DNA from: Candidatus Aldehydirespiratoraceae bacterium
GTDB taxonomy: Bacteria > Actinomycetota > Acidimicrobiia > Acidimicrobiales > Aldehydirespiratoraceae
DNA: 64,000 nucleotides
Assembly: GCA_965214565.1 (NCBI GenBank)
Contig: OZ243951.1
Span: 1,017-65,016, forward strand
Reading direction: 5' to 3'
Below the pieces are notes generated by a model. It worked only from the letters and a program-made list of their open reading frames with translations. It searched no databases and was not told the DNA's origin. The number at the start of each line of letters is the position of its first letter. Position 1 is the first letter of the stretch. Positions 22,509 through 51,006 of the stretch are shown piece after piece. A program made the translations under genes and the position numbers.

Positions 22509-22682
22509 GACAAGCGGAGAAGCTCACACGACCACTCAAACGGCTCAACATCCCAAACTCCTCAACTCCACAGAACCTGCAACGAACGAAGCATTGTAAC
22601 AGCCCGGCAATTCAACGCGACCAGCGGTCCGTACCGCCCGCGACGCAACACGAAGCGACGCAGCCACGACTGCACTCGGCCC

Positions 22683-26838: not shown

Positions 26839-26889
26839 CGACCGGACCCTACACGCGCACTACGACACAAGCACCGCCCCCGATACCGC

Positions 26890-29453: not shown

Positions 29454-29472
29454 TCGCTCTCGGTCATGTAGT

Positions 29473-29488
29473 GTTGACCCGGGACAAC
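29473..29488. promoter_or_regulatory. near-palindrome upstream of the ABC ATPase gene
   Basis: GTTGACCCGGGACAAC, with 14 of 16 positions self-complementary, lies 16 nt upstream of the ATG at 29504. It shares the GTTGAC half-site with the melA/lacI operator. Confidence 0.3.
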
Positions 29489-29503
29489 CGAACAGAGGAC
29501 TTC

Positions 29504-30583: not shown

Positions 30584-30595
30584 GTTCGGCCAGGT

Positions 30596-32547: not shown

Positions 32548-32566
32548 GGAGGGGACTCTAGTCGCT

Positions 32567-32599
32567 CGTTCGGATCACTCGAGCGTTCGGATCACTCGA
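32567..32599. repeat. 17-bp-period tandem duplication spanning the stop codon of the binding-protein gene
   Basis: cgttcggatcactcga occurs at 32567-32582 and again at 32584-32599. The second copy contains the last codons and the stop (tca at 32592-32594). Confidence 0.8.
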
Positions 32600-33932: not shown

Positions 33933-33999
33933 TTCCCCTCCTAGGGTTTCTGGTGTTTCCAGGTTTATTGTTGGGTTCTTGGGGAGGTCCTGGCATAGG

Positions 34000-35373
34000 T
34001 CAGGCTGACTCTCCGTGCGTGCGCAGGGACTCGGGGATGAAATCGCCGTGTCCTTCGATCAGTGCGTCCACCAGCGACCAGATCTGTTCGAGATCCAGTT
34101 CCGCCGCGGTGTGCGGGTCGAGCATCGCCGCGTGGTAGATGTGGTCCCGTCGGCCCGTCTTAAGGGCTTCGACGGCAAGTTGCTGCGGCGCGATATTGGT
34201 GCCCATCAGAGCTGCCAGATGCGGAGGCAGTTCTCCAATCACCGCGGGGGTGACGGCCTTTCCGTCGACGGTAGCCGGAACCTCGACAATGCATCCGGTG
34301 GGAAGGTTGTCGATCAGTCCGTGGTTAGCGACGTTTACGTAGACCTCGCGTTCGGTGCCGGTCTCGAGACTGTGAATGATCTGGGGGGCGAACTCGTTGC
34401 TCCTCGGGAGATCCGTGAGTTCCACCCCGGCCTCGAGGCGGGTCCGCAGCTCGTCCCACTCGGCGATCTGGTTCTCGCAGCGGCGCACGTACTCGCGTAC
34501 TGGGACTTCATAGCGTTCGATCAGGTCCGGGCGGCCCTGCTTGAGGAAGTACGGCGTGTACTCGGCGAAGTGTTCGCTTGATTCGGTGACGAAGTAGCCC
34601 AACCGCCGCAGCATCTCGTAGCGGACTGCATCCGGGAGTTGCGAATCGCTCCGCCTGGGCGCGTCAGCCGGGTCGGTGTGGAGTTTCTTGAGTTCGGGGT
34701 AGAGGTCACGGCCCTGGTGCTCCAGCCGCAGGAAGAACGCCATGTGGTTGATTCCGGCAACGGTGTAGTCGAGTTCCTCTGTCGGCAGCCCCAAGTCGCC
34801 TGCCAGTTGCTCTGCGGTGATGGGGACGCTGTGGCAGAGCCCGTAGGCCTCGACTTCGCACAGTTCGGCCAGACCCCACATGTTGATCGCCATCGGGTTC
34901 GCGTAGTTGAGCAGCACTGCATCCGCGCACTGCTCGTTCATGGCTCGGCCGACTTCGACGAGGTGCGGCACAGTTCGCAGACCCCGCATGATGCCCCCGA
35001 TACCGATCGTGTCAGCAATGGTCTGTTGGAGTCCGTACTGCTCCGGCAGGTCGAAGTCCAGAACGGTGGCCGGTTCGAAGCCTCCGATCTGGAACATGGT
35101 GATCACATAGTCGGCACCGTCGAGGGTCTTCTGCAGGTCGGTGTCGGCGATGACCTGCGCCCCGGCACCGCAGCTGGCGACCAGTCTCTGTGCCACGACC
35201 TCTGAGGTGGAGAGGCGCTGCGAATCGATGTCGTGGAGCCGAAACTCGAGGCAGTCGCGAATGTCCTCGTAACCGAGCAGGTCATTGAGGAGGTTCCGAG
35301 CAAATACAGTGCTGCCCGCTCCGATGAATGCGACTCTGGCCAACTTCTCTCCCGTGGTCGGTCGGCTCACCAT
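34000..35373 (-). CDS. melA: GH4 alpha-galactosidase (MelA type, NAD+/Mn2+-dependent)
   Basis: FIGAGSTVFARNLL Rossmann N-terminus, GLCHSV, AGINHMAFF, VTESSEHFAEYTPYF and LIDNLPTGCIVEVPA. Closely parallels E. coli MelA as I recall it. Confidence 0.9.
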   Translation of the reverse strand: MVSRPTTGEKLARVAFIGAGSTVFARNLLNDLLGYEDIRDCLEFRLHDIDSQRLSTSEVVAQRLVASCGAGAQVIADTDLQKTLDGADYVITMFQIGGFEPATVLDFDLPEQYGLQQTIADTIGIGGIMRGLRTVPHLVEVGRAMNEQCADAVLLNYANPMAINMWGLAELCEVEAYGLCHSVPITAEQLAGDLGLPTEELDYTVAGINHMAFFLRLEHQGRDLYPELKKLHTDPADAPRRSDSQLPDAVRYEMLRRLGYFVTESSEHFAEYTPYFLKQGRPDLIERYEVPVREYVRRCENQIAEWDELRTRLEAGVELTDLPRSNEFAPQIIHSLETGTEREVYVNVANHGLIDNLPTGCIVEVPATVDGKAVTPAVIGELPPHLAALMGTNIAPQQLAVEALKTGRRDHIYHAAMLDPHTAAELDLEQIWSLVDALIEGHGDFIPESLRTHGESA

Positions 35374-35388
35374 AGAACAATTCTTGAC

Positions 35389-35420
35389 TTACGTCAACGT
35401 TGACGCCATCGTTGACGTAA
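35389..35420. promoter_or_regulatory. LacI-family operator(s) in the melA/lacI divergent region
   Basis: Perfect 14-bp palindrome CGTCAACGTTGACG (35392-35405), nested in an 11-bp inverted repeat TTACGTCAACG (35389-35399) / CGTTGACGTAA (35410-35420). The AACGTT core is typical of LacI/GalR operators. Confidence 0.6.
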
Positions 35421-35523
35421 CGTGCACTGATCCAGGGTCGCCGACCGGCCGTTGAGTCCACACTCCCGAGAATCCAGAGGCTAGACAGTTAGCATCGCCG
35501 TACACCGAAAGACGCAGAACGAG

Positions 35524-36522
35524 ATGGCAACAGGAGCAACCCTACGAGACGTGGCCGACAGGGTCGGAGTGTCGCCTCGCACGGTATCCAGAGTCGTCAA
35601 CGACGAGGGGGGGTTCTCCAAGGCGACCCGGGCCAGGGTGCTCGAAGCGGTGGAGGATCTCGGATACCAGCCGAACATGTTGGCCCGCGGCTTGATCACC
35701 CGCCGCAGCGGCACGGTTGGACTCGTCGGCGCAGACATGACCGACCCGTTCTTCCCCGCGATGGCCGAGGGTATCCAGAACGAGGCCCGCGAGACCGGTC
35801 GCACAATGTTCTTCGCAAGCAACGACGGCGATCCCCATCGCCAGGCCGAAGTGTTCAGATCGCTGCTGTCGCACGCGGTCGACGGAGTGATCGTTTTCCC
35901 TGCCCCCGGGACGGTCGAACAGTTGGCCGCCTACGCTCGGCGCGGGATGCCTCTGGTGATCGTCGACGACATCGTCGAGTTCCCCAATCTCGCTTCGGTG
36001 TCGTTCGATCTCGAGGACGGTGCCCACCAGGCGGCACAACATCTGCTCGCTACCGGCAGACGCAGGATCGGCATGATCGGCTCGGAGGTCACAGTTCCCC
36101 GAAACCGACGCCGGGAGCGGGGATTCTTGCGAGCGTTCGAGAAGGCACCCACGGGTACTGCCCCCCCGGAACTGGTCCGCGAGCAACCGACGGTGACCGG
36201 AGGATCAGACGGGTTGAAGAAGCTCCTTGAACGCCGACCCGACCTCGACGGGATCTTCGCCTTCAACGACTCAATGGCCGTCGGCGCCATGCGTGCGGCA
36301 CAGTCGGCCGGCTACCGCGTCCCCGACGATCTGGCCATAGTCGGCTGCAACGACATCGAACTGAGTGGACTGGTGAACCCCAGGCTGACCACCATCAGAC
36401 TCGACCGCCGCCGACTGAGCGCGGAAGCGATCCGAGTCCTCCATGATCTGATTGAGGCTCCGGGCGCCAACCCCGCACCCGTGGTGCTGCCCGTGGAACT
36501 CGTGGTGCGGGAATCGACATGA
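35524..36522 (+). CDS. LacI family transcriptional regulator
   Basis: N-terminal HTH ATLRDVADRVGVSPRTVSRVVN and a periplasmic-binding-protein-like effector domain. 332 aa. Confidence 0.9.
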   Translation: MATGATLRDVADRVGVSPRTVSRVVNDEGGFSKATRARVLEAVEDLGYQPNMLARGLITRRSGTVGLVGADMTDPFFPAMAEGIQNEARETGRTMFFASNDGDPHRQAEVFRSLLSHAVDGVIVFPAPGTVEQLAAYARRGMPLVIVDDIVEFPNLASVSFDLEDGAHQAAQHLLATGRRRIGMIGSEVTVPRNRRRERGFLRAFEKAPTGTAPPELVREQPTVTGGSDGLKKLLERRPDLDGIFAFNDSMAVGAMRAAQSAGYRVPDDLAIVGCNDIELSGLVNPRLTTIRLDRRRLSAEAIRVLHDLIEAPGANPAPVVLPVELVVREST

Positions 36523-36527
36523 TCGAG

Positions 36528-36551
36528 GGATTCGGAGCGACTCCCGAATCC
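36528..36551 (+). promoter_or_regulatory. GC-rich stem-loop between lacI and galK
   Basis: GGATTCGG (36528-36535) pairs with CCGAATCC (36544-36551), plus an inner AG/CT pair and a 3-nt loop. It begins 6 nt after the lacI stop and ends 14 nt before the galK ATG. No T-tract follows. Confidence 0.4.
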
Positions 36552-36565
36552 GGCGCGGCGTGAAC

Positions 36566-37753
36566 ATGGTGAGCGCTGACCGCAGCAGCAGCTCGCCTGC
36601 GATGGACCGGGCGATCCTGCGCCATCGGCAGCGCTGGGGCACGCCCGAAGTCGTGGGCCGCGCACCCGGACGGGTCAACCTGATCGGCGAGCACACCGAC
36701 TACAACGACGGATTCGTGCTGCCGATGGCGCTGCCCTTCGACACCGTCGTCGCAGCGCGGCGAGCACCCGAAGGGTCGAGCACCGAGGTCTTCTCAGAGG
36801 ACTTCGGGCACGCTGTGCTGGCGCCGTCGACCGCAGAGATCGACCCGACAGACTGGTCCGTCTACCTGCACGGCGTCCACCGCCTACTTCACGCCGAGGG
36901 TTTCCGCCCCGGGCCGTGGCACGCCACCATCGCCACCGACATACCTGCCGGTGCGGGGCTGTCGTCGTCCGCAGCCCTCGAAGTGGCGGTCGTGTCGACC
37001 ATCCTGCACCTGGCCGGCGGCGAACAATCCGCCGCGCAGATCGCCCGACTTTGCCAACGGGTAGACAACGAATTGGTGGGGATTCCCAGCGGGATCATGG
37101 ATCAGATGATCTCGGCTTCAGCGCTGGCCCGACACGCCTCTTTGATCGACTGCCGCTCTCTGCGCGTTAAGCCCTACCCGCTTCCGGGGGACTCGGTTGT
37201 GGCGGTGATGGACACGAAGACCCGCCGTCAACTCGTCGACTCCGAGTACTCCGACCGCCGCTCGGCATGTGTCCGTGCGGCCGCGGCCATGGGCGTGGAT
37301 TCGCTCCGTGACGCTCGGCTGACCGACCTCGAACGGATCCCGTCCGACCTTGCTGTCGAGCGGCGTCGGGCGCACCATGTGATCACCGAGAACCAGCGCA
37401 CGGTCGACGCCGCGCAGACGATGGCTGTCGGTGACGCCGCGGCCCTCGGCAAGCTGATGGACACCAGTCACGACAGCCTGCGCGACGACTACGAAGTCTC
37501 AGGGCCCGCACTGGATCAGATGGTCGAGATCGCCCGGGAGAGCGCCGGCTGCTTCGGTGCGCGCATGACCGGAGGCGGTTTCGCGGGCTGCGCAGTGGCG
37601 CTGGTGCAAACCGAGGCGGCAACCGAGTTTCAAAAGTGTGTAGCACAGCGCTACCGCGACGAGAGCGGCCTCGACGCCGAGATCTGGCTCTGCGAACCCG
37701 CCGCCGGCGCTTCGGTCACCTCCGTCTCAGGCAACATCGACGCAGCGTTCTAG
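36566..37753 (+). CDS. galK: galactokinase
   Basis: GRVNLIGEHTDYNDGFVLP signature, GHMP motif PAGAGLSSSAA, and C-terminal GARMTGGGFGG-like (GARMTGGGFAGC). Start set at ATG 36566 (alternative 36602); the track ORF begins inside lacI. Confidence 0.92.
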   Translation: MVSADRSSSSPAMDRAILRHRQRWGTPEVVGRAPGRVNLIGEHTDYNDGFVLPMALPFDTVVAARRAPEGSSTEVFSEDFGHAVLAPSTAEIDPTDWSVYLHGVHRLLHAEGFRPGPWHATIATDIPAGAGLSSSAALEVAVVSTILHLAGGEQSAAQIARLCQRVDNELVGIPSGIMDQMISASALARHASLIDCRSLRVKPYPLPGDSVVAVMDTKTRRQLVDSEYSDRRSACVRAAAAMGVDSLRDARLTDLERIPSDLAVERRRAHHVITENQRTVDAAQTMAVGDAAALGKLMDTSHDSLRDDYEVSGPALDQMVEIARESAGCFGARMTGGGFAGCAVALVQTEAATEFQKCVAQRYRDESGLDAEIWLCEPAAGASVTSVSGNIDAAF

Positions 37754-39575: not shown

Positions 39576-41252
39576 TCAGGGCAGGGCCCAGAGCTTCCCT
39601 TGGCCCACATCTCCAACCAACTGCGCGCCTGGGGGTGCGGTTGCGTCCGCACGTAGCAGCAGATGGGACGTCTCTGGGCTGATCTTGTCCGGGGCGACCT
39701 CGACTGAGGTGTCGTCGAACCCGACTTCCCAGGCGACCGCACCCGTCAGGTTTACAGACAACCCAGGCGTGTCGACGGCGATCTGGGATATCTCGACATC
39801 CTCCAGCGCCTCTTGAACAGAGCTCAAAGCGGCTGTAGCGAACAGTTGGTCGAGCGCTTCGAGGTCCGAGGCGGTTCCGAGGCACAGCGCGGCCAACGCC
39901 AGACAACATCCCAGCCAGGGCTGCGACAACCTGAACGCCATGAGCAGCACGACGCCGACCAGCACCGCCACCAACGCGGCCGCGCCCGGTTCAAAGACGT
40001 CATTGCCGAACGGCGCGCCGCCGGCCTCGACGCCGAGCATCATGACCGGAGACCGGGAGTTGCCCCAGTTGTCACCTGCACCGGCCCATGCACCCCACAC
40101 TCCCGAAGCGACGATGGCAGCGGTCATGGCGAGGCCCGCCCGAGCAGCACGCATCCTCGTTGAACCGATGATCCCCAACGCAACGAGGGTGGGTGCCAAG
40201 ACCTCGATATAGCGCCCGTGGAGGTATGCGTCGGCACGTCCCACACCGGTGAGGAACCATCCAGCAACGACGACCACGGCGAGTCCGGCAACAAATACCC
40301 ACGGCCCGACCGGCGGCGACCGGAGCAGCAGCACCAACCCGATGGCAGCAAACCCCGCGGTGGCGAGCACCAGATAGGCGACCGTCCCGGTGCCTCGCAG
40401 TAGCATCTCGGGGGCTTCGGCCAGGCCCCGACGGCCAGCCAGATCAACCACGTCGTAGGTGCCGCTGCTGGCGAACGCCGCGCTCGCAACGGTGCGGCGC
40501 ACTCCTTCGACTGCGGCCAAGCCCAGCAAACCGCCTCCTCCGACGACGAGCGTGGCAGCCCCGGAGAGGGCCGGCTCGCTTCGGCTGGCGGCAGGATCGG
40601 GCGGCGCGGCGAAGCTGCTGCGGATCCGCCAGCGTCTGACCAGGCGGTCGAACCGGGCGATACAGGGGACAGCCAGAACGACCACCAGCGCGGCCGCACC
40701 CATCCGCGGGTGGCCCGCGAACAGCGCTGCCGCCCCCCCGACGACCGCGATCGCCCGGCGGTATGACTGACGTTCCACGAACCGGATCAGGAACAGGACG
40801 CTCAGCGCCACCAGCAGAGGCAGCAGTCGCTCGGTCCAGACGATAGAGGCGGTCGACATCTGAGCCGGCAGCGAGGCTCCGACCACCGCGGCGACCAGCG
40901 ACCACCGCGGCGAGGCTCCGGTGAGCCGCCTCACAACCGCATAGAGAACTGGCACCAGCGCGGCGCCGAGCAGCCCGTTGAGAACCCGAGCCCAGATCAG
41001 CATCGACGACTCGTCGAACCCGAGGGCCCAACCGGGCGCCAGCAGCACGGGATATAGCACCCCGTAAGGAGGTTGATCCGCGAGCGGCGCCGCTCCCTGA
41101 CCCGCCAGTGTCCGGGCCATCCCCAGGTAGGCGAGATCGTCGGAAACGAGCAGCGGGCCCGGCGTGAGCATGGCAACCCAACTTCCGACAACGGCATGCA
41201 ACGCGGTCACTGCTGCCAAAGTCCTGCGTTCGTTCACAGTGGGCACTGCCAC
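39576..41252 (-). CDS. polytopic membrane protein, putative GT-C fold glycosyltransferase (ArnT/PMT-like)
   Basis: More than 10 predicted hydrophobic helices, an early acidic loop motif (VSDDLAYLGMA), and a C-terminal soluble domain of about 120 aa. Assigned from architecture only. Confidence 0.45.
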   Translation of the reverse strand: MAVPTVNERRTLAAVTALHAVVGSWVAMLTPGPLLVSDDLAYLGMARTLAGQGAAPLADQPPYGVLYPVLLAPGWALGFDESSMLIWARVLNGLLGAALVPVLYAVVRRLTGASPRWSLVAAVVGASLPAQMSTASIVWTERLLPLLVALSVLFLIRFVERQSYRRAIAVVGGAAALFAGHPRMGAAALVVVLAVPCIARFDRLVRRWRIRSSFAAPPDPAASRSEPALSGAATLVVGGGGLLGLAAVEGVRRTVASAAFASSGTYDVVDLAGRRGLAEAPEMLLRGTGTVAYLVLATAGFAAIGLVLLLRSPPVGPWVFVAGLAVVVVAGWFLTGVGRADAYLHGRYIEVLAPTLVALGIIGSTRMRAARAGLAMTAAIVASGVWGAWAGAGDNWGNSRSPVMMLGVEAGGAPFGNDVFEPGAAALVAVLVGVVLLMAFRLSQPWLGCCLALAALCLGTASDLEALDQLFATAALSSVQEALEDVEISQIAVDTPGLSVNLTGAVAWEVGFDDTSVEVAPDKISPETSHLLLRADATAPPGAQLVGDVGQGKLWALP

Positions 41253-41325: not shown

Positions 41326-41398
41326 GGGGCTATAGCTCAGTTGGTAGAGCGCTTCCATGGCATGGAAGAGGTCAGGGGTTCAATTCCCCTTAGCTCCA
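41326..41398 (+). tRNA. tRNA-Ala (anticodon GGC)
   Basis: GGGGCTATAGCTCAGTTGGTAGAGCGCTTCCATGGCATGGAAGAGGTCAGGGGTTCAATTCCCCTTAGCTCCA. Cloverleaf with the G3:U70 Ala identity pair, anticodon loop AT-GGC-AT, and T-loop GGTTCAATTCC. CCA is not encoded. Confidence 0.93.
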
Positions 41399-41423
41399 CC
41401 CGGTTGCCACCGCGCCCCTAGCC

Positions 41424-42446
41424 TCATCGACGTAGCGCGCCGCGGACGATCGTGGCGCAGAGCTGCGCGATAGCGAGGTGCGTCGCCGGTTCGATGCCAT
41501 CGACATGGTCGTCGATGATGCCGTGTGTCGAGTTGATCAGCCCTTCAGCAGTCATGACGTCGAGCAGGCGGCGCTCTGCCTCGGGGGTGTGAAGAACGCT
41601 GCGATCGCCGGTGCGGGCCGCCATCGCTGCCACGATCGCCGTGCAGCCCCAGTTCGAGACCGCAGCGGTGACGAGCACATCAGCCGTCGAGACCGCGCCG
41701 ATCCCGCCCCCGCAGGGACAGCTGCCGTCGCCGCCGAACGGGATATGGGCCTGCACCTGGTCGGCGACATTGCCCATGCCGATCTCGTTGCCACCGTCGC
41801 CGATCGCCAACACCGGGATGCCACGATCACGGGCAGCGTCGAAAAGGTCGTCGATCCGGGCTCGGCCCATGCCGTAGTCGCGGCCGCGCATGTTGTAGTA
41901 GATCCCGTTGCGATTGCGTCCGACTCGTTCGGTCGAGACCAGCAGATCAGGCTGGAGCTCGTCGAGCATTGCCGTTGCGGCGGCAGGACCCTCTTCGTCG
42001 GTGAGGGGGAACGACCGTGTCGTCATCACAACGAGGCTGGCCTCATCGTTGGCGAGCCGGGCTTGCTCAAAGTCGACCAATGCAAGACCTCCGGCCTGAC
42101 AGACCCGGCCGATGGGACCCAGCAACGCCTCCTCGGCAACCAGGGCCACGGTCGCCCGGCGAGTCAATACGATGGCGCGGGCGAGCGCGGCGGCGCCAGC
42201 CGGTCCGTCATTCTCGCCGATGGCCGCGGAGATCCACGCCCGGGAGACCGAGCCTGTGGTGAGGATCACGGTGCCGCCTTCGGGCACCGAGAGCAGGGCA
42301 TCGGCAGCCGCGCCGATCAGCGATCTGCCTTGCTGTTCACGGGCGGCGCGGAAGAGTGGTTCTATTCCTCGGTTGCCGACGTCGAGGTTGACCAGCCGAT
42401 CGAGTCGATCGTCCAACTCGGCGAGGCGGGCGGCATCCATGGTCAT
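41424..42446 (-). CDS. DUF4392 / D-glutamate-cyclase-like protein
   Basis: GENDGPAGAAALA (compare the ETDGPPGA motif), STERVGRN..GIYYNMRG and IGDGGNEIGMGNV. Start set at ATG 42446, which forms an ATGA overlap with the upstream stop. Confidence 0.62.
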   Translation of the reverse strand: MTMDAARLAELDDRLDRLVNLDVGNRGIEPLFRAAREQQGRSLIGAAADALLSVPEGGTVILTTGSVSRAWISAAIGENDGPAGAAALARAIVLTRRATVALVAEEALLGPIGRVCQAGGLALVDFEQARLANDEASLVVMTTRSFPLTDEEGPAAATAMLDELQPDLLVSTERVGRNRNGIYYNMRGRDYGMGRARIDDLFDAARDRGIPVLAIGDGGNEIGMGNVADQVQAHIPFGGDGSCPCGGGIGAVSTADVLVTAAVSNWGCTAIVAAMAARTGDRSVLHTPEAERRLLDVMTAEGLINSTHGIIDDHVDGIEPATHLAIAQLCATIVRGALRR

Positions 42447-43708
42447 AATCCTTCCGTACCGAATAGCGTCGTCGCCACCCAAGCAGTGTCAGACCCCTGT
42501 GCGGCCACGGTCGACAACACGCTGTCGAACGCTCCGGCCAGGACGGTTGGCCCTCCAACACGTGCGACCGCGCCCTCGGTGGGCTTGAGGCGGATCGAGA
42601 CTCGACCCCCGGGCTGGCCGTGGGTGTTCACGGTTAGCACCCCGTGTTTGCGCAACAAGACCATCCCCGCAACAGCGGTGATCTCGCACGGGACCAGCGT
42701 GACTGCTTGGCCGCCGGGTCGGGCGTGGACGAGCCGCGTAACCGCTTCCTCTGAGAGGGTCGGACCCAACTCGGAGCGAACGACCGCGTCCTGGCCGAGC
42801 ACCTTGATCAGGGCATCGGCGACCGCTCGACCGTCTTCGACCTCTCGGCGGAGGATCTCGGGATCGAATGCCTCGAGTGAGCGCAGTGCACCCAGCGCGA
42901 TCGGGGCCCGCGCCTCGATGCCAAGCTCGCTGGCTTTAGCCAGCACTGCGACCACGACGTCTTCTCGCCCAACCATGACGCCACTGCGGGGGCCGCTCAA
43001 CCCGGCCTTATCGGTGTTGGTGATGGCCGCATCGGCGCCGAGTTCGAGGCTTTTGGCTCCACCGTGCAGAACCGGGCGCAGCCGCGCGCCGTAGGCCTCG
43101 TCCATGAAGACGATGGCACCGGCATCGTGCGCCGCGCTCACGGCCGAGCGGGTGATGTGGTCGTCGAGGCGGGCCAGGGTGCTCGTTACGGTGGTCACCA
43201 CCACCAGCGTTGGCGCCATGTCGTCGATTGCCGCTGCGATCGCGTCCGGATCGTCGATCTCCACCAGTTCGGCACCGGCGAGCGCGCATCCCCGGATCAC
43301 CGAGGCGTGGCTTCGGTCGCCAGCGGGCACAACCGACACGACGGGGCGATCGCCCGATAGGGCGACCATCGCGGCGACGATGCCTCCGGACGTGCGGTTG
43401 ACGACAGCGAAAGCGTCGTCGAATCGGCCGCCGAGATGATCGATCGCGACGTCGCGAAACCGCTCGGCGAAACGTCCGGGCCCGACCCACTCTTCGGCGA
43501 GGTCAAGATCGCCGGGGGTGAGCGGGAACGCCCGGGAGTTTCCGGTGAAGATCCCGATCGAGTCGATGCCTCGCTCCGCGACTACGTCGGCCGCGACCTG
43601 TTGGGCGTGCCGAAGTCGGCGCACTTCGGCTGCGCTCGTGTCGAGGAAGGCACCGCGTGCGTAACCCACTGTCGGATCGATCGGGTTGCCGAAGGCGTCG
43701 TCCGTCAT
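42443..43708 (-). CDS. fold-type-I PLP-dependent enzyme, SelA-like family
   Basis: FMDEAYGA (pyridine-N Asp) and ITNTDKAGLSGPRSG (Schiff-base Lys in a SelA-like GDKLLGGPQ context). 421 aa. The assignment is tentative. Confidence 0.5.
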   Translation of the reverse strand: MTDDAFGNPIDPTVGYARGAFLDTSAAEVRRLRHAQQVAADVVAERGIDSIGIFTGNSRAFPLTPGDLDLAEEWVGPGRFAERFRDVAIDHLGGRFDDAFAVVNRTSGGIVAAMVALSGDRPVVSVVPAGDRSHASVIRGCALAGAELVEIDDPDAIAAAIDDMAPTLVVVTTVTSTLARLDDHITRSAVSAAHDAGAIVFMDEAYGARLRPVLHGGAKSLELGADAAITNTDKAGLSGPRSGVMVGREDVVVAVLAKASELGIEARAPIALGALRSLEAFDPEILRREVEDGRAVADALIKVLGQDAVVRSELGPTLSEEAVTRLVHARPGGQAVTLVPCEITAVAGMVLLRKHGVLTVNTHGQPGGRVSIRLKPTEGAVARVGGPTVLAGAFDSVLSTVAAQGSDTAWVATTLFGTEGL

Positions 43709-43718
43709 CGGCCCGGCC

Positions 43719-45203
43719 TCATCCGCGCAATCGCATCGTGACCGACTTGCGGGTGGTGTATGCCTCGAGGGCGCCCTCGATCGAGTATTCGCGGCCCACG
43801 CCGCTTTGCTTCACTCCGCCGTAGGACATACCGGGGATCTGACCGCCACCGTCGTTGACCCAGATCCAGCCCGCCTCCAACGCTGAGCTGACCCGCATGA
43901 CGGTGTCGACGTTGTGGCTGAAGATGAAGGCCGCGAGGCCGTAGTGCGTGTCGTTCGCCATGTCGATCACGTCGGTCTCGTCGTCCCACGGGATGGCGAC
44001 CATCACCGGGCCGAACACCTCTTCGCGGCTGATCCTCCACGAGTTGTCGACGCCGACGATCACGGTCGGCACGGGTTGGAATGCGGGCGCCTCATCGACC
44101 GGGGCGGGAGTTGCTCCCGTCAGAAACTCTGCCCCGGCCTGCTCCGCCTCGGCGAGGTAAGCACGGACCTCGGCGTAGCGCTCGGCGTTGATGATTGCGC
44201 CCATGTCGGCTGCCTCGTCGAGGGCGTCGCCCACCACCATCGCTTCTGCGATCTCGACGACCGCGGTCATCACCGGCTCCCACACATCGCGATGGACGAA
44301 CAAGCGTGATCCGGCTGTGCACGACTGGCCCTGCCGGGCGAATCGCATCGCGTTGACGATCGCCTGCGCGGTCGTGCGCAACCGGTCGGGCGAGGCCGCA
44401 TCGGGGAACACGATGCAGGGGCTCTTCCCGCCGAGCTCGAGCGTCGCGTGTGCGAGGCGATCTGCGGCCTGACGGGCGACCGCGAAGCCGACTTCCGACG
44501 ATCCGGTGAATGACAGCTTGTCGACGCCGGGATGGGCAGCCAGCGCTACACCGGCTTCCTCGCCGACGCCGGTGACGACGTTGAACACCCCGGGCGGAAA
44601 GATGTCGGCGGCCAACTCGGTGAGTCGCAGGACTGCGAGCGGAGCGTCCTCGGCCGGTTTGAGCACCAGTGCGTTGCCGGTGGCGAGCGCCATCGAGATC
44701 TTGCCGCAGCCGAGCTGCAGGGGAGAGTTCCACGGGATGATTGAGCCGACGACACCGATCGGCTCCCGGGTCGAGTACGAGAAGAGGTCGGAGCCGAATG
44801 GGAGCACCTCTCCTTTCTGTTCGACGGCCACTCCGGAGAAGTAGCGAAGCACGCCCGCGGCACCCCCGGTCTCGCCTCGAGACTGGGTGCGAATGACATT
44901 GCCGGTCTCTGCCGCGAGGACCCGAGCGACCTCCTCGTGATGCTCATCGAGTCGGCGGGCGAGCTCCCCGAGCATCACTCCCCGCTCGGCCGCGGGAACG
45001 GCTCGCCATCCGGGCAGGGCGCGTCGAGCAGCGGTGACGGCGGCATCGATCTCCTGCGCGCCTCCGCGACCGACCTCGGTAATGATCTCTCGACGCGATG
45101 GGTTCTCGACCTCGAGGCTCCCTTCCGGGGTGATCCACTCACCGTCGATGAAGCAACCGGCGAGACCCTCGGTCGGCAAAGTGATGGGCAAAAGGTTGGT
45201 CAT
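43719..45203 (-). CDS. NAD(P)+-dependent aldehyde dehydrogenase
   Basis: FTGS, ELGGKSP and the catalytic Cys context (QGQSCTAGSR), with the PWN motif (IPWNSPL). 494 aa. Confidence 0.9.
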   Translation of the reverse strand: MTNLLPITLPTEGLAGCFIDGEWITPEGSLEVENPSRREIITEVGRGGAQEIDAAVTAARRALPGWRAVPAAERGVMLGELARRLDEHHEEVARVLAAETGNVIRTQSRGETGGAAGVLRYFSGVAVEQKGEVLPFGSDLFSYSTREPIGVVGSIIPWNSPLQLGCGKISMALATGNALVLKPAEDAPLAVLRLTELAADIFPPGVFNVVTGVGEEAGVALAAHPGVDKLSFTGSSEVGFAVARQAADRLAHATLELGGKSPCIVFPDAASPDRLRTTAQAIVNAMRFARQGQSCTAGSRLFVHRDVWEPVMTAVVEIAEAMVVGDALDEAADMGAIINAERYAEVRAYLAEAEQAGAEFLTGATPAPVDEAPAFQPVPTVIVGVDNSWRISREEVFGPVMVAIPWDDETDVIDMANDTHYGLAAFIFSHNVDTVMRVSSALEAGWIWVNDGGGQIPGMSYGGVKQSGVGREYSIEGALEAYTTRKSVTMRLRG

Positions 45204-45334
45204 GCGGATTCTCCTGAACGCAGGGTGAGGTAGAGGGCGGAGTAGTCCGTGGCCACGAGATTGACTCCCGCGTCGAGCGGCGTGGACGCCATCGCAAGAC
45301 CCATCGCGCCGAGTCCGAACTGCACGACGCGCAT
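45200..45334 (-). pseudogene. 44-codon relic of a beta-hydroxyacid (HIBADH/6PGDH-type) dehydrogenase N-terminus
   Basis: Hand translation gives MRVVQFGLGAMGLAMASTPLDAGVNLVATDYSALYLTLRSGESA*. This is a GxGxxG Rossmann N-terminus like MKIGFIGLGNMGxPMAxNLxKAG, which then degenerates. Its TGA overlaps the ALDH ATG (ATGA at 45200-45203). Confidence 0.45.
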
Positions 45335-45340
45335 TGTGTC

Positions 45341-47806
45341 CTACCCCCGTGGCCGTGCGTGGTCGGGGTCATAGACCCCGTGTTGGTGGCGGACCGCGGG
45401 CAGGTGGGCGCCGTAGCCGTCGATCGTGAACCCGTCGATGGTGTGGGCGTGGCGGCCTTCGACGTAGCCGAGACAGATCCGCTCGCCGGTGCGGAAGCCC
45501 ATCGACGCCGAGGTTACGAACCCGACCGCCTCGCCAGCGACCCGGATCGGGGCCGAAGGCTGCGGATTGCCCTCGGGCGCGGGCATCGTGGAGGTGTCGA
45601 CGGTCCACACGCCGTAGCTCCAGTCGATCGGCCTATTGGCCATTGCTTTGACTGATTCGCAGCCGATGAAGTCGGGCTTGTCCAGATCGAGGAATCGGTC
45701 GAGGCCGACATCGAAGGGCGTGTACTCCACGCCGAACTCACTCCCCCACCCGTGGTAGCCCTTCTCGACGCGCATGGCGTTGAGGGCGTAGGAGCCGAAG
45801 TCGCGCAGCCCGAGATCGGCGCCTTCAGCATGGAGGGCTTGATAGAGCTTGACAAGGTCGGCGTCGTCGACGTGGAGTTCCCAGCCGAGCTCGCCGACGA
45901 AACTGACCCGCAGGGCGGTGGCCATTACGCCGGCGATCTCGATCTCGCGCAGCGACATCCACGGTGCCGCTGCCTTCGAGAGGTCGGCGTCGGTCAGCCG
46001 GGACAGAAGCTCACGAGAGTTCGGCCCCATCACCATCAAGGTCGAGGTGCGCTCGGTGCCAAATTTGACTTCAACCGAGCCGTCGGCGGGTAGGTGGCGC
46101 TGGAGCCAGTCGAGATCGCGCTCACGAGCCGCGGTCGGACCGAGCCAGAGGAATTGGTCGTCGGCGAATCGTCCGATCGTGGCCTCGCTCCACACCGTGC
46201 CGTTCGGGCGCAGCAAATAGGACAGCCGTACCCGACCCAGCGCGGGTAGCCGGGTACAGACCATGCGGTCGAGGAAGCCCGCCGCACCAGGGCCGGAGAT
46301 CTCGTAGCGGGTGAAGCCGCCGTGATCCATGATGCCAACGTGATCGCGCACCGCCCGGCACTCCTCGGCAACTGCGTCGTGCCAGTGCTCGTCGCGGTAG
46401 CTCAGCGTGTCATGGGAGTACTCCTGCGCGCCGAACCAGAACGCCCGCTCCCAGCCGGCGATCTGGCCCATCCGGGCACCCTTGGCGGCGAGCGTGTCGT
46501 AGAGCGCAGTCTTTTGGACCGGCCGAGCCGAGGTCCACATTCGGTGCGGGAAGGGGGCGCCGTATTGGTGCTCGAACATCTCGCGCGCGCGGGTGTTGGC
46601 GTAGGAACCGCGTCCCGAGCCGGTGAGCGCCCAGTCGCCGAAGCGGCGGGGATCCCAGGGCCACACGTCCCACTCGGTGTCGCCGCCGGTGATCATCTCG
46701 GTGAGGACCTTGCCGACCGCGGCGGCGTGGGTGATGCCGATCTGCACTCCGACCGCTTGGTAGAAGCCATCGACACCGGGAGCGGGGCCGATCATCGGGT
46801 TCATGTCGGGCGTATAGGTGATCGGGCCGTTGACGAACTCGGCGATGCCGACCTCGCCGAGCAGCGGCACATGGGCCATCGCCAGCTCGGCGATCTCGGC
46901 GATGCCCTCGTCGTCGGGAGCGAAGAGCGAGGCGTCGAATACGTCGGGCTTGACGTCCTCCCACACGGTGCGGCCCTCATGGCCGTAGTTGCCGAACAGC
47001 AGCCGGTCGTTCTCGCGCCGGAGGTAGAACATGATCTCCGGGTCGCGCACGAGCGGAAACACGTCGGTGTTAGCGACCAGCTCCGGCACGGTACCGGTGA
47101 CGAGGTACTGGTGTTCGAGCACGGCGAGCGGCACCTCCATGCCGGCCATCGCCGAGATCTCGGCGCCGTAGAACCCGGCTGCGTTGATGACGATGTCGCA
47201 CTCGATCGCGTAGTTCTCGTCCTCGCGCTCGACGTGGACCCGCCAACGGGCGTCGGTACCATCGAGCCGGTCGATGGCGACCACGCGCGAGTGCCGTCGT
47301 ACCTCGGCGCCCATGGCGCGGGAGCGGCGGGCGAGGGACTGAGTCAGACCGCTCGGATCGATATCGCCCTCGTAGGGATCGAGCAGGCCGGCGATCACAG
47401 TGCCGTCGTCTGACCAGTATGGGTGCATCGCCTCCATCTCGGCGGGCGATACGATTTCGAGGTCGAAGCCGAGTCCGGTGGCGATCGCGACGAGATGGTG
47501 GAAGTGATCGATCCGACTGTCGGTATGGCCCGGCCAGAACGCCTTGGTGTGGCGATAAGTGATCGGGTCGCTGGGGTCCTTGGCCAGCTCCGAGTAGACC
47601 CGCCACGCATAGTTGCCGGCTCGCTGACCGAGCCAGCTGTTGGAGAACGTGGGAACGTTGCCCGCGGCGTGCCACGTCGACCCGGCCGTCAGCTCGTGCT
47701 TCTCGATCAGCACCGAGTCGGTGCGGTCAGCCTGGGCGAGATGCCACTGAATTGAGGTCCCGACGGCACCGCCACCGATGACGGCGATCTCGAAACGATC
47801 GGTCAT
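45341..47806 (-). CDS. FAD-dependent oxidoreductase fused to a GcvT-type folate-binding domain (dimethylglycine/sarcosine dehydrogenase family)
   Basis: N-terminal IAVIGGGAVGTS dinucleotide fold (DAO type) and a C-terminal aminomethyltransferase-like half. 821 aa. ATGA overlap with the mttB-like stop (47803-47806). Confidence 0.85.
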   Translation of the reverse strand: MTDRFEIAVIGGGAVGTSIQWHLAQADRTDSVLIEKHELTAGSTWHAAGNVPTFSNSWLGQRAGNYAWRVYSELAKDPSDPITYRHTKAFWPGHTDSRIDHFHHLVAIATGLGFDLEIVSPAEMEAMHPYWSDDGTVIAGLLDPYEGDIDPSGLTQSLARRSRAMGAEVRRHSRVVAIDRLDGTDARWRVHVEREDENYAIECDIVINAAGFYGAEISAMAGMEVPLAVLEHQYLVTGTVPELVANTDVFPLVRDPEIMFYLRRENDRLLFGNYGHEGRTVWEDVKPDVFDASLFAPDDEGIAEIAELAMAHVPLLGEVGIAEFVNGPITYTPDMNPMIGPAPGVDGFYQAVGVQIGITHAAAVGKVLTEMITGGDTEWDVWPWDPRRFGDWALTGSGRGSYANTRAREMFEHQYGAPFPHRMWTSARPVQKTALYDTLAAKGARMGQIAGWERAFWFGAQEYSHDTLSYRDEHWHDAVAEECRAVRDHVGIMDHGGFTRYEISGPGAAGFLDRMVCTRLPALGRVRLSYLLRPNGTVWSEATIGRFADDQFLWLGPTAARERDLDWLQRHLPADGSVEVKFGTERTSTLMVMGPNSRELLSRLTDADLSKAAAPWMSLREIEIAGVMATALRVSFVGELGWELHVDDADLVKLYQALHAEGADLGLRDFGSYALNAMRVEKGYHGWGSEFGVEYTPFDVGLDRFLDLDKPDFIGCESVKAMANRPIDWSYGVWTVDTSTMPAPEGNPQPSAPIRVAGEAVGFVTSASMGFRTGERICLGYVEGRHAHTIDGFTIDGYGAHLPAVRHQHGVYDPDHARPRG

Positions 47807-49308
47807 GGACGCTCCGGGAGATGGATCGGGAAGGCCGATCGAATCGCGGCCTCGTTCGTAGGACCGAGATGGTCGGGGCGGCCAGCGGCCAGAATCTGCG
47901 CAACCTGCTCACCCGCTCGGTCCCACAAACTCGGCTCACCCGCCGACACCCACTCGTCAACAGATCGACGATCGCCGAGTTCGGGATAGACGTACTCGCT
48001 GCGCATCAGCTCGAGAGTATGCGAGCTCCCCAGGTAGTGGCCCTCACCGCCGACGACTTCTTCGATGATCGCGAGGTCGAGATAGGCCGGATCGACCTCA
48101 ACCCCGCGGACCGAACGCAAGATGGCACCGCACATGTCGCTGTCGATCACCAAGCTCTCGGGGCTGGCGACCATGATCGATCCGAGCATGCCGACTGACA
48201 GCTGCACCATGTCGGCGCCGGCGTGCGCCGCGAGCGAGACGGTGTAGCCCTTCTCGTACCCTGCCTGGTTGTCGGCCGCCTTCGACTCAGTAATGCCAGC
48301 CGATACCGCGTGCGGAATGTCGAGATCACGCAGCAGCTGCGCTGCGGCAGCCGAGACGACCGCTGCCTCGCCGCTGCCACCCGTCATAGCTCCGGTGCGG
48401 AGGTCGGAAATGAACGGCATGAAGGCATGGATGCACGGATGGCCGGGCCTGATGGCATCGGCGAGCGCCACGCCAGCGAGGATTTCGGCCAGCCCCTGGG
48501 CCAGCGAGCCCGCGAGCGACGGCGGCGATGTGGCGCCGGCCTGGCCGGCCGAGCACGTCTGCACGATCATCCCGCGTTCGATCGCCCGCTCCATGATCTC
48601 GCAACCCTCCGGCGAGAATCGCAGCGGCGGGACGACATGCACGACAACCGCCATCGAGAACGGCTGCGCAGCGAAACGTCCGGGACTGCCAAGCGCCATG
48701 TCGAACAGGTCGACTACCGGATCGACGGTGGCCGCTGAGGTAAAGCTCAGGCCGGTCGGTTTGGCAGTGGCGGCGGTGACGGCGAAGGCGGTGTTGAGAT
48801 CGAGTTCGAGCGGATCGAGGACGTCGCGGGCGATGAGGGGTCGAAGCCCATAATGGATGTTCGGCATCTCGTCGACGACGCGCATCATGGTCCACACATC
48901 GCTGAGCTGCGACTCGCGGTAGGTGCCGGACCTAGCGTCGAGTACCTGCACCGCGGCGCCACCGGTCCCGATGTGCACTCTGCCGCCCCCGATCGACACG
49001 CCGAGCTCCTCGGTAAAGCCCGGGAGCGACACGGTCGACGGGGCCCGGTCGAGCGCAGCTTCGACCATGGTCCGAGAAAGGAGGAGCCGCCCGTCGTCGC
49101 GGCGACGGGCCCCGGTTGACAGCAGCAAGTCGGCGTACGGTCCGGGAGCATCGGCCATCCCGACCGTTTCAAGCATCTCGAAGGCATGTTCGACGATCCG
49201 ATCACGGTCCGGATCGTCGAGCGGACGGTATGCACCACCGGCGGGCGCCGGTGTGACTCGGTGGCTCGGAGGCTGAGCCGACGGCGTGCGGTTGCGTCGC
49301 CGTGCCAT
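47803..49308 (-). CDS. MttB-superfamily (non-pyrrolysine) methyltransferase
   Basis: YRPLDDPDRDRIVEHAFEMLETVG, HIGTGGAAVQVLD and YRESQLSD...NIHYGLRPLIARD parallel the trimethylamine methyltransferase family proteins of aerobic bacteria. There is no in-frame stop that could be read as Pyl. Confidence 0.82.
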   Translation of the reverse strand: MARRRNRTPSAQPPSHRVTPAPAGGAYRPLDDPDRDRIVEHAFEMLETVGMADAPGPYADLLLSTGARRRDDGRLLLSRTMVEAALDRAPSTVSLPGFTEELGVSIGGGRVHIGTGGAAVQVLDARSGTYRESQLSDVWTMMRVVDEMPNIHYGLRPLIARDVLDPLELDLNTAFAVTAATAKPTGLSFTSAATVDPVVDLFDMALGSPGRFAAQPFSMAVVVHVVPPLRFSPEGCEIMERAIERGMIVQTCSAGQAGATSPPSLAGSLAQGLAEILAGVALADAIRPGHPCIHAFMPFISDLRTGAMTGGSGEAAVVSAAAAQLLRDLDIPHAVSAGITESKAADNQAGYEKGYTVSLAAHAGADMVQLSVGMLGSIMVASPESLVIDSDMCGAILRSVRGVEVDPAYLDLAIIEEVVGGEGHYLGSSHTLELMRSEYVYPELGDRRSVDEWVSAGEPSLWDRAGEQVAQILAAGRPDHLGPTNEAAIRSAFPIHLPERP

Positions 49309-49433
49309 CAGGATCCAGCGAGTCGGGTAACGGTCGCCAACATCTGTTCGATCTCGGCGCGCGTGTTGTAGTGACTGGCGGACACCCGCACGCAGTTCTC
49401 GAGCCCAGCGAGGAGATCGGGATCGAAGGTCAC
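49308..49433 (-). pseudogene. relic of the C-terminus of a class-V (fold-type-I) aminotransferase-like gene
   Basis: Hand translation in the frame ending TGA at 49310-49308 gives (V)TFDPDLLAGLENCVRVSASHYNTRAEIEQMLATVTRLAGS*. The VRxSxxxYNTxxEI motif is the characteristic C-terminal motif of class-V enzymes. The frame is closed by a TGA at 49457-49455. Its stop abuts the mttB-like ATG (TGATG). Confidence 0.45.
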
Positions 49434-50836
49434 GTGCGGACAGCTTTCAGGGTGTCATCGAGTGCGCCGGCAAGGCGCCTTGTGGCCTCCTCGATCTCGT
49501 CCGTTTCGATGATCAGCGGAGGCATGAAGCTGATGCGATCAGGGGCGATCGTACGGAGGTAGAGACCGCGGTCGTGGGCGTGATCCTGCACCTGTTGTCC
49601 AACCTTCAACCGAGGATCGAAGAGCGTGCGGGTTGCCTTGTCCGCGACCAGCTGGATGCCGCAGAACAGCCCGACCCCTCGGACGTCCCCGACCAGCGGA
49701 TGATCAAGGAGTGCCTCACATCCGGCGAGAAAACCAGGTGACACCAAGCGAACGTGACCGATAATGTCGATGTCGTCATAGATGCTCAGCGTCTCCAGAG
49801 CGATGGCGGCACCGACCGGGTGGCCGGAGTACGTATAGCCGTGGCCCAGTACCCCCACCTCGTCCGCATTGGACTGCAGGTCCTCGTAGAGCTCCTCCTT
49901 GAACAGCAGCGCGGACATCGGGAAGAACCCTGCGGTGAGGGCCTTGGCGCACGACACGGTGTCGGGTTCGAGGTCCCACGTCTCGCTTCCCCAGCGATTT
50001 CCGGTTCGGCCAAAGCCACACACAACTTCATCAACATGGAAGTGGATGCCGTACTTCTTCAGAATCGCCTGCATTCGCGGCCAGTAACCCTCGGGGGGCT
50101 TAATGGCGCCACCCCCCGACTGCATGGGCTCGGCTGCGAACGCGGCAACCGAAGCCGGCCCGGCGTCGAGGATCACGCGCTCGAGGTCGCCGGCCATGCG
50201 TTCCGAGAATTCCTCTTCTGTCTCTCCATCGTGATGGGCGAGGTAGTAGTTCGGCGTCTCGGTCTTGACGAAACCGTCGAGGGGAAGGCCGAACTTCGCG
50301 TGCATGTGGGGCTGCCCCGACAAACTCACCGACGCCACGGTGTTGCCGTAGTAGCCGCGCCAGCGCGAGATGAACACTCGGCGGTCAGACTCGCCCCTCG
50401 CCGTGTTGCGGGCCCATAGGAACTTAATCAGCGTGTCGGTCGCCTCTGAGCCGCTGCACTGAAAGATGACGCGCGACATGTCCCCGGGGGCAAGACCCAC
50501 TAGGCGGTCCGCGAGCTCGGCGACTTTGGGGTGGGTGCGCCCGTAGAACGTCGGCGCGTACGGCAGTGTGGAGAGTTGCCGATGTGCCGCGATGGCGATG
50601 CGTTCATTGTCGTATCCCAGTGAGGTGCAACCAAGACCCGAGAAGCCATCGATCACATGTCGCCCGTCGTCCGTTGTGATCCAAACGCCATTGCCTTCCA
50701 CGACCATGGCCGTTGGGCCCTGCTCGGTGTGCTGACGAAGGTCGGTCTGGCCGTGAACGTGTCGACACGCATCAACAGATCGGAGGTCGATAGCACTCGG
50801 CATTGCCCCATTGTCGCGGGAGGACAGTTGAGCCAC
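49430..50836 (-). CDS. class-III (omega) aminotransferase
   Basis: GFSGLGCTSLGY, FICSGSEA-like (FQCSGSEATD), HVDEVVCGFGRTG and SCAKALT (PLP Lys). 468 aa from a GTG start; an ATG at 50803 is an alternative start. Confidence 0.9.
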   Translation of the reverse strand: MAQLSSRDNGAMPSAIDLRSVDACRHVHGQTDLRQHTEQGPTAMVVEGNGVWITTDDGRHVIDGFSGLGCTSLGYDNERIAIAAHRQLSTLPYAPTFYGRTHPKVAELADRLVGLAPGDMSRVIFQCSGSEATDTLIKFLWARNTARGESDRRVFISRWRGYYGNTVASVSLSGQPHMHAKFGLPLDGFVKTETPNYYLAHHDGETEEEFSERMAGDLERVILDAGPASVAAFAAEPMQSGGGAIKPPEGYWPRMQAILKKYGIHFHVDEVVCGFGRTGNRWGSETWDLEPDTVSCAKALTAGFFPMSALLFKEELYEDLQSNADEVGVLGHGYTYSGHPVGAAIALETLSIYDDIDIIGHVRLVSPGFLAGCEALLDHPLVGDVRGVGLFCGIQLVADKATRTLFDPRLKVGQQVQDHAHDRGLYLRTIAPDRISFMPPLIIETDEIEEATRRLAGALDDTLKAVRT

Positions 50837-50905
50837 AATCGAAACTTATGCCATTATCGATGAGCTATGCTCAACTAATGTCCAGTCCGATATTGGATAT
50901 TTCGC

Positions 50906-50966
50906 GGATTTTGCGAGCGTCGCGGCGGACTGACGACCTAACGCCCCCAGAGCCTGCGCAAAATCC
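50906..50966. promoter_or_regulatory. 10-bp perfect inverted repeat in the rsfS/aminotransferase intergenic region
   Basis: GGATTTTGCG (50906-50915) and CGCAAAATCC (50957-50966) are separated by 41 nt. An AT-rich tract with AATATC-c-AATATC direct repeats (minus sense) follows toward the operon start. Confidence 0.35.
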
Positions 50967-51006
50967 AGAGTGAATCAGTGTGACGCATCGGGAACTCACC
51001 CGCGGT

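Follow-up and report, generated by a model that had tools for sequence, protein, structure and literature searches.

A partly eroded gene cluster, probably for the breakdown of an N-methylated amine, in an Acidimicrobiia bacterium

A six-gene operon of Candidatus Aldehydirespiratoraceae bacterium, located in a 64-kb window (the whole stretch of DNA analysed, 64,000 nucleotides of contig OZ243951.1), is probably what remains, after partial erosion, of a conserved catabolic cluster whose substrate would be an N-methylated and most likely quaternary amine. Its genes encode a class-III omega-aminotransferase (AT3), a methyltransferase of the MttB superfamily that lacks pyrrolysine (non-Pyl), a DMGDH-like flavoprotein, an aldehyde dehydrogenase (ALDH), an MJ0158-like enzyme dependent on pyridoxal phosphate (PLP; the gene is called PLP below) and a DUF4392 protein. 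Comparison with related loci indicates that it arose by decay from a cluster with eight enzyme genes and a LysR gene. Demethylation by an MttB-family enzyme followed by a DMGDH-type enzyme is an already known kind of pathway; the conserved downstream module of AT3, ALDH, a HIBADH-like dehydrogenase, two PLP enzymes and DUF4392 under one LysR was found in no published description.

A 2025 study of the MtgBCD system noted the many orphan MttB paralogues of aerobic marine bacteria and suggested that they serve other methylated compounds (PMC12478193). The present cluster gives one such orphan paralogue of aerobes a conserved genetic context of eight enzymes and a LysR sensor, and it would for the first time place bacterial DUF4392/TON_0340-like proteins and MJ0158-like PLP enzymes in a physiological setting. 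Three carriers, Nioella sp., Ruegeria sp. HKCCA4008 and Shimia abyssi, appear to be cultured isolates; if so, the substrate question is testable.

Deleted genes persist as stubs

Two supposed gaps in the operon, of 121 bp and 137 bp, are in-frame remnants of a class-V PLP enzyme gene (AT5) and of HIBADH rather than spacers. The AT5 stub overlaps the AT3 stop at its beginning (GTGA) and the MttB start at its end (TGATG), and its 32 C-terminal residues are 78% identical to AT5 of an 88%-identical relative, L001 (E=5e-12). Relative to the closer locus L090 (on a contig of 2.94 Mb), the deletion spans 1126 bp, with window position 49410 joining L090 positions 1149 and 2276 (blastn). The HIBADH stub keeps the Rossmann N-terminus, its N-terminal 30 residues being 70% identical to L001 HIBADH (E=1e-5), continues with 14 C-terminal residues and ends on the ALDH start (ATGA); here the deletion measures 748 bp, with window 45246/7 joining L090 positions 6445 and 7194 (blastn). 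The L001 HIBADH orthologue itself scores 282 bits on TIGR01692 (cutoff 292). Both deletions keep the reading frame and the stop/start overlaps, suggesting that expression of the downstream genes was still under selection.

The regulator has left fainter traces. The region 5' of AT3 aligns with the LysR–AT3 intergenic region of L001, L009 and L016–L019, sharing the pattern TTGAGCA..CTCATCGATA..TTCGATTGT.GCTCAACTG, and contains an N-terminal LysR stub (MSYAQLMSSPILD...) starting at 50860 and a C-terminal stub (...FCERRGGLTT*) ending at 50941. These match the termini of L001 LysR (MRTAQPLQGPTLD / FCESRGGLMM). Taken singly, these matches are weak (tblastn E=4.6); position and orientation fit, and the evidence is weaker than that for the enzyme stubs. 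A preliminary description of the operon, made from the letters alone, had reported no corrinoid protein, RamA-type activase, transporter or regulator gene in or beside it; none is indeed intact there, and window gene scans found no intact transporter or regulator gene adjoining the cluster, but LysR survives as these stubs.

Recurrence of the gene set in two phyla

Related loci (designated by L numbers) were recovered with the window MttB and DUF4392 proteins. L001 and L090 both carry eight genes in the order AT3–AT5–MttB–DMGDH–HIBADH–ALDH–PLP–DUF4392. A divergent LysR lies upstream of AT3 in L001 and several other Acidimicrobiia loci; the L090 sequence starts inside AT3, so that its upstream region is not covered. 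The complete nine-gene set (eight enzymes and LysR) is present in six Acidimicrobiia loci, and near-complete sets cut by contig ends occur in several more. Beyond this class, Nioella sp. (L093) carries all eight enzyme genes, with the LysR gene at the locus edge, in the order LysR / AT3 / DMGDH←MttB / HIBADH–ALDH–PLP–DUF4392–AT5, and the same core occurs in Ruegeria sp. HKCCA4008 (L088) and two other alphaproteobacterial contigs (L089, L092). The association of these genes is far beyond chance. Because the set recurs in two phyla with different gene order, it is one functional unit, and the six window genes belong together. Their treatment as a unit in the preliminary description thus holds, the genes being kept together in Acidimicrobiia and Rhodobacteraceae.

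Within this unit, MttB–DMGDH is the invariant core. The pair stands alone in about 30 loci; an in-frame 4-nt stop/start overlap was confirmed by script in 24 of 48 orthologous MttB/DMGDH junctions, and the MttB stop lies within [A/G/T]TGA in about 44 of the 48, as read by eye from the printed sequences. A second variant has, in place of PLP, DUF4392 and ALDH, genes for SRPBCC and Amdase/Asp-Glu-racemase-type proteins, which lie between MttB and DMGDH; LysR, AT3 and HIBADH are kept. Throughout the loci examined, the DUF4392 protein is always paired with the MJ0158-like PLP enzyme. The genes flanking the cluster in L001 (FA_hydroxylase, PanB-like, 3HCDH, aldolase, PhyH) were considered as pathway members and rejected, as they are not conserved with it. 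A literature search (including DUF4392, MJ0158, Poriferisodalis and MttB+DMGDH+aminotransferase) found no paper describing the cluster.

Two of the alphaproteobacterial loci show further peculiarities. Shimia abyssi (L091, 1–12298) has AT3–ALDH–PLP–DUF4392–AT5 and LysR together with two DMGDH-like genes and a sulfatase gene and no MttB, a hint that the substrate there may be sulfated or not quaternary. In L092, two short open reading frames (ORFs) of 184 and 176 aa (8740–10004) stand for the PLP gene, which is possibly a pseudogene; three 5-oxoprolinase subunit genes of the PxpABC type (16774–19155) adjoin the cluster and may hint at a lactam intermediate.

Six intact genes under purifying selection

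Gene calls combined the ORF listing of the 64-kb window with profile searches (Pfam, NCBIfam). All six ORFs match their families over full length (Table 1), bearing out the number, strand and families given in the preliminary description. Its tight junctions are also correct by sequence: MttB and DMGDH overlap by ATGA at 47803–47806 and PLP and DUF4392 by ATGA at 42443–42446, the downstream start lying on the upstream stop in each case, and ALDH and PLP are 10 bp apart.

Table 1. Intact genes, remnants and downstream boundary of the putative methylated-amine cluster (window coordinates)
Feature	Position	Strand	Remarks
AT3, class-III pyruvate-type omega-aminotransferase	49430–50836	-	intact; Pfam Aminotran_3 253 bits
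MttB-superfamily methyltransferase, non-pyrrolysine	47803–49308	-	intact; PF06253 (MTTB) 302 bits
DMGDH/SARDH-type flavoprotein with tetrahydrofolate-binding aminomethyltransferase domain	45341–47806	-	intact; DAO+FAO_M+GCV_T+GCV_T_C
ALDH, NAD(P)-dependent aldehyde dehydrogenase	43719–45203	-	intact; Aldedh 471 bits
Fold-type-I PLP enzyme, MJ0158/TIGR03576 kind	42443–43708	-	intact; TIGR03576 197 bits (cutoff 304)
DUF4392 (GLUCM-like_C) protein, TON_0340-like fold	41424–42446	-	intact; PF14336 230 bits
AT5 stub (class-V PLP, cysteine-desulfurase-like, TIGR01976 type)	49308–49433	-	41 codons in frame
HIBADH-like (NAD_binding_2) dehydrogenase stub	45200–45334	-	44 codons in frame
Divergent LysR remnants	50860–50941	+	inside conserved promoter/operator region 50837–51006
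tRNA-Ala(GGC), downstream boundary of cluster	41326–41400	+	also follows the remnant cluster in L006

AT3 scores 533 bits on NCBIfam PRK06105, above its cutoff of 517, and its closest solved structures are omega-, GABA (gamma-aminobutyrate)- and putrescine-type transaminases (394 bits). The MttB match spans profile positions 6–489 of 500 in PF06253; the gene is an uninterrupted 501-codon ORF with no in-frame UAG (the pyrrolysine codon), falls below the trimeth_pyl equivalog cutoff (270 versus 525) and scores 165 bits against MtgB of D. hafniense. In the DMGDH-like protein all four domains exceed their cutoffs, and the match to human DMGDH reaches 465 bits. ALDH stays under every NCBIfam equivalog cutoff (best StyD, 408 bits, and BADH, 400 bits), and no solved structure matched it at E <= 1e-100.

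The two remaining assignments need qualification. The PLP enzyme had been called SelA-like; it matches no SelA model, giving only a weak Aminotran_1_2 match besides the TIGR03576 score below cutoff, and its nearest structure is MJ0158 (PDB 2aeu, E=1.7e-40). For the DUF4392 protein, a D-glutamate-cyclase-like identity had been proposed, of which the PF14336 domain and the TON_0340 fold stand. Its AlphaFold2 model (pLDDT 87.7) returned as significant Foldseek matches in the PDB (E <= 0.001) only TON_0340 chains (TMt 0.80–0.88). PF14336 is the sole domain present, and the protein lacks the N-terminal DUF1445 domain and with it the DGLUCY architecture. It is 63–65% identical to its Rhodobacteraceae homologues.

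Purifying selection acts on each of the six window genes: the ratio of nonsynonymous to synonymous substitution (dN/dS) against L090 ranges from 0.07 to 0.24 (AT3 0.07, MttB 0.10, ALDH 0.11, PLP 0.24). Scans of the window detected no cobalamin or other riboswitch, and promoter and terminator scans gave nothing above background.

Proposed pathway and substrate

In the pathway that we propose, the non-Pyl MttB would strip the first methyl group and pass it to a corrinoid protein encoded elsewhere, as in MtgB–MtgC–MtgD. The coupled DMGDH-like flavoprotein, judging from its domains, would then transfer one or more further methyl groups oxidatively to tetrahydrofolate (THF). AT3 could then turn the freed primary amine into an aldehyde, which ALDH would oxidise to the acid, and the MJ0158-like PLP enzyme and the DUF4392 protein would finish the backbone, with the HIBADH-like dehydrogenase and AT5 also participating in the ancestral cluster. 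The features of AT3, ALDH and DUF4392 are compatible with demethylation, transamination and oxidation of a terminal methylated amine. In this lineage the cluster is shrinking, the regulator and two enzymes having been deleted, the enzymes in frame such that translational coupling was kept.

The identity of the substrate was approached through the binding site of MtgB. In the D. hafniense enzyme, glycine betaine is bound by Y97, R312, H348 and F356 (PMC13080624). HMMER and MAFFT alignments place G117, A334, L370 and I378 of the window MttB at these positions, so that none of the four is conserved, and the whole clade of the window MttB (Acidimicrobiia and Alphaproteobacteria) has G, A/T, L and I there. 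This replacement across the clade suggests that the enzyme acts on something other than glycine betaine. The substrate is thus probably not glycine betaine and possibly lacks an anionic group close to the nitrogen. A StcD-adjacent paralogue retains the Arg and His of the MtgB site. A single gene of the cluster carries DAO/GCV_T domains and a third demethylase is missing, the other scanned window ORFs being without these domains; together with the missing contact residues, this upholds the mismatch with the canonical betaine route that had been pointed out before. Guesses at candidate substrates are gamma-butyrobetaine, beta-alanine betaine, carnitine, choline, choline-O-sulfate, taurobetaine, trimethyl-lysine and the head groups of the betaine lipids DGTS and DGTA.

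A paralogous cluster bears on the same question. In 32 Acidimicrobiia loci (L054–L085), two DMGDH-like genes stand with an MttB gene whose product is 46–48% identical to the window MttB and has Gly and Glu at the positions of MtgB R312 and H348. Glycine betaine may be broken down by this cluster in the lineage, or the cluster may serve yet another substrate.

According to the most conventional alternative, the locus encodes the ordinary glycine betaine route: MttB would be an MtgB that yields dimethylglycine, the DMGDH-like enzyme would make sarcosine, and the other genes would be neighbours from unrelated pathways. The closeness of the DMGDH-like protein to mammalian DMGDH and the loci in which the MttB–DMGDH pair stands alone agree with it, as does the frequent proximity of mtgB and dimethylglycine-demethylase genes in marine bacteria (PMC12478193). 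We nevertheless consider it improbable: the accessory genes accompany MttB–DMGDH in two phyla, reshuffled and under one LysR, all four MtgB contact residues are replaced, and Acidimicrobiia possess the separate DMGDH–DMGDH–MttB cluster.

Corrinoid partner and methyl acceptor

The B12-binding domain of E. coli MetH was searched with phmmer against the window and 85 loci, using ORFs from all six frames. No B12-binding ORF was found anywhere in the 64-kb window, where genes for a cognate corrinoid protein, MT2 and a RamA activase were likewise not found, and a corrinoid protein within 10 kb was present in one of the 85 related loci (L038). In that locus, from an Acidimicrobiales metagenome-assembled genome, a URO-D-family (MtaA/MtbA-like) methyltransferase adjoins a 214-aa stand-alone corrinoid protein (9–1585); the two lie 8 kb from the MttB–DMGDH pair, the sole such case among the 85. 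The only pterin-binding ORF of the window (25900–26859) was considered as an MtgD candidate and rejected, as it is FolP.

The preliminary description had regarded the absence of a linked corrinoid protein as a puzzle over the methyl acceptor of MttB. This puzzle largely dissolves in the light of aerobic marine MtgB (pfam06253), whose partners are the corrinoid protein MtgC and the methyl-THF methyltransferase MtgD; the genes for both lie elsewhere, and a split methionine synthase shares the two proteins (PMC12478193). A genome may hold as many as seven orphan pfam06253 paralogues, genes for later demethylases often lie beside mtg genes in marine bacteria, and 5% of ocean mtgC reads were assigned to Actinomycetota (PMC12478193). 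MtgC and MtgD are unlinked in the Rhodobacteraceae R. pomeroyi and P. inhibens (PMC12478193), and the methylated-amine cluster also occurs in this family. By this analogy, a missing adjacent corrinoid gene would be normal for the MttB family in aerobes and raise no special acceptor question, and the partner of the window MttB is presumably encoded elsewhere in the genome.

A more radical possibility, implied in the preliminary description, is demethylation independent of a corrinoid protein, with MttB passing its methyl group directly to THF on the GCV_T domain of the DMGDH-like enzyme, or to free cobalamin or MetH. The translational coupling of MttB and DMGDH in most orthologous loci and the lack of a corrinoid gene in the window and within 10 kb in 84 of the 85 loci are in keeping with it, and a homology search with the L038 corrinoid protein as query returned no match on a contig of this genome's size among the best 120. 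We hold it to be very unlikely, since the MttB-family enzymes characterised so far all methylate a Co(I) corrinoid (PMC13080624, PMC12155760, PMC8604678), the cluster is shared with Rhodobacteraceae in which R. pomeroyi and P. inhibens have unlinked MtgC/MtgD (PMC12478193), and alphaproteobacterial variants have two genes between MttB and DMGDH. The adjacency of the pair is accounted for by consecutive steps of a pathway. An MttB–DMGDH pair acting as a self-sufficient two-step demethylase without a dedicated corrinoid protein, on a quaternary amine without the anionic group that all known family members recognise, seems just as improbable.

Erosion from eight to six to two genes

The closest named relative at this locus belongs to the sponge-associated genus Candidatus Poriferisodalis (Acidimicrobiia). 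In one member, Candidatus Poriferisodalis sp. (L006), MttB–DMGDH is 96.6% nucleotide-identical to the window, and the other genes are reduced to 198 bp containing the AT3 3' end and the AT5 stub, 172 bp containing the HIBADH stub and the ALDH 5' end, and 210 bp of PLP. DUF4392 sequence is entirely lost, and tRNA-Ala follows directly after the remnant cluster, as in the window. L006 carries the deletion joints of the window and therefore descends from the six-gene form. The series of eight, six and two genes indicates that this lineage can dispense with the backbone branch and keeps methyl removal; it documents a shift towards pure methyl-group harvesting, which would be the selected core function.

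The history of the locus is not uniform. Synonymous divergence (dS) from L090 is discontinuous, at 0.58–1.0 for AT3–MttB–DMGDH and about 0.24 for ALDH–PLP–DUF4392, with the break at the HIBADH stub, so that the cluster is mosaic and recombinant in origin. Around the L006 segment (9577–14592), the syntenic comEA, comEC and holA a few kb away are only 35–50% protein-identical to those of the window, the left flank is unrelated to the window's, and no mobile-element genes were found in the flanks. This contrast suggests that the L006 MttB–DMGDH segment beside tRNA-Ala was recently transferred laterally or replaced.

These losses raise the possibility that the backbone branch is already dead in the window, with only MttB–DMGDH functional and the other four genes heading to loss, a view that overlaps with the catabolic reading and is not exclusive of it. 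LysR, AT5 and HIBADH are deleted here, and L006, derived from the six-gene form, has lost the remaining four. We regard a dead branch as unlikely, given that the four genes are full length with dN/dS within the range above and that in-frame deletions with preserved stop/start overlaps suggest selection for downstream expression. A further DUF4392 protein (P0121), 98% identical to that of the window, lies on an 11,883-bp contig, and near-identical MttB, DMGDH and PLP proteins are likewise found on a contig of 11,883 bp, which hints that another genome may carry the six-gene form.

Several points weigh against the reading of the locus as a catabolic cluster for a quaternary amine other than glycine betaine. 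The DMGDH–DMGDH–MttB group of Acidimicrobiia, which is likely of glycine-betaine type, is also without the MtgB contact residues, and the comparison of residues takes its reference from D. hafniense MtgB, whose aerobic counterparts have no characterised binding site. No transporter is linked in any locus examined, and for this reason the attempt to read the substrate from neighbouring genes failed. A trimethylated substrate would oblige the one DMGDH-like enzyme to take two methyl groups. The loss of the regulator and two enzymes, and of four more in L006, may mean that the backbone branch is nonfunctional here. The search with the L038 corrinoid protein described above counts on the same side.

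Relation to known systems

We favour the catabolic reading with these points in view, and several characterised systems resemble parts of the cluster. DoeD/DoeC of ectoine breakdown and GABA transaminase/SSADH combine a class-III aminotransferase with an ALDH to convert a terminal amine to a carboxylate; here no equivalog model is matched, and the amine needs prior demethylation. The DMGDH/SARDH family shares with the window enzyme its four-domain architecture and THF-dependent aminomethyl-transfer domain, but the window enzyme is translationally coupled to MttB and has no second such enzyme for the last methyl group.

The nearest system as a whole is MtgB–MtgC–MtgD of Ruegeria pomeroyi and other marine bacteria, likewise built on a non-Pyl pfam06253 enzyme in an aerobe, with corrinoid and THF-methyltransferase partners that are not adjacent, later demethylases nearby and several orphan paralogues (PMC12478193). 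The window differs in that its MttB lacks the glycine-betaine-contact residues, its MtgC/MtgD partners are presumed, and the cluster also encodes an omega-aminotransferase, an ALDH, a HIBADH-like enzyme, a DUF4392 protein and two more PLP enzymes. MtgB, MtcB, MtyB, MtpB and MthB of anaerobes belong to the same superfamily and TIM-barrel fold family (PMC13080624, PMC8604678, PMC12155760). They are encoded with a cognate corrinoid protein and MT2 and conserve Arg312, which binds the anionic group, whereas in the window these partners are not linked, the residue is Ala (Thr in relatives) and the host is an aerobe-type Acidimicrobiia bacterium. For the DUF4392 protein, PF14336 and the fold are common to TON_0340, a putative metal-dependent phosphatase, and to the C-terminal domain of mammalian D-glutamate cyclase (PMC5132392, PMC5339696); unlike the mammalian enzyme, the window protein lacks DUF1445 and is paired with the MJ0158-like PLP enzyme.

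Surroundings of the cluster in the window

Upstream, the cluster is neighboured by rsfS, a LytR_C protein gene and nadD. Downstream, tRNA-Ala(GGC) is followed by a 558-aa ORF (39576–41252, minus strand) with coding-like GC content at third codon positions (GC3) and no Pfam or NCBIfam match. A sugar-utilisation block at 28994–37753, comprising an ABC ATPase, two permeases, a solute-binding protein, a GH4 glycosidase, a LacI regulator and a galactokinase, is unrelated to the methylated-amine cluster. At 7848–22523 on the minus strand lies a single ORF of 4,891 codons, whose only Pfam match is to six Calx-beta domains (215 bits) and which probably encodes a giant surface or adhesion protein.

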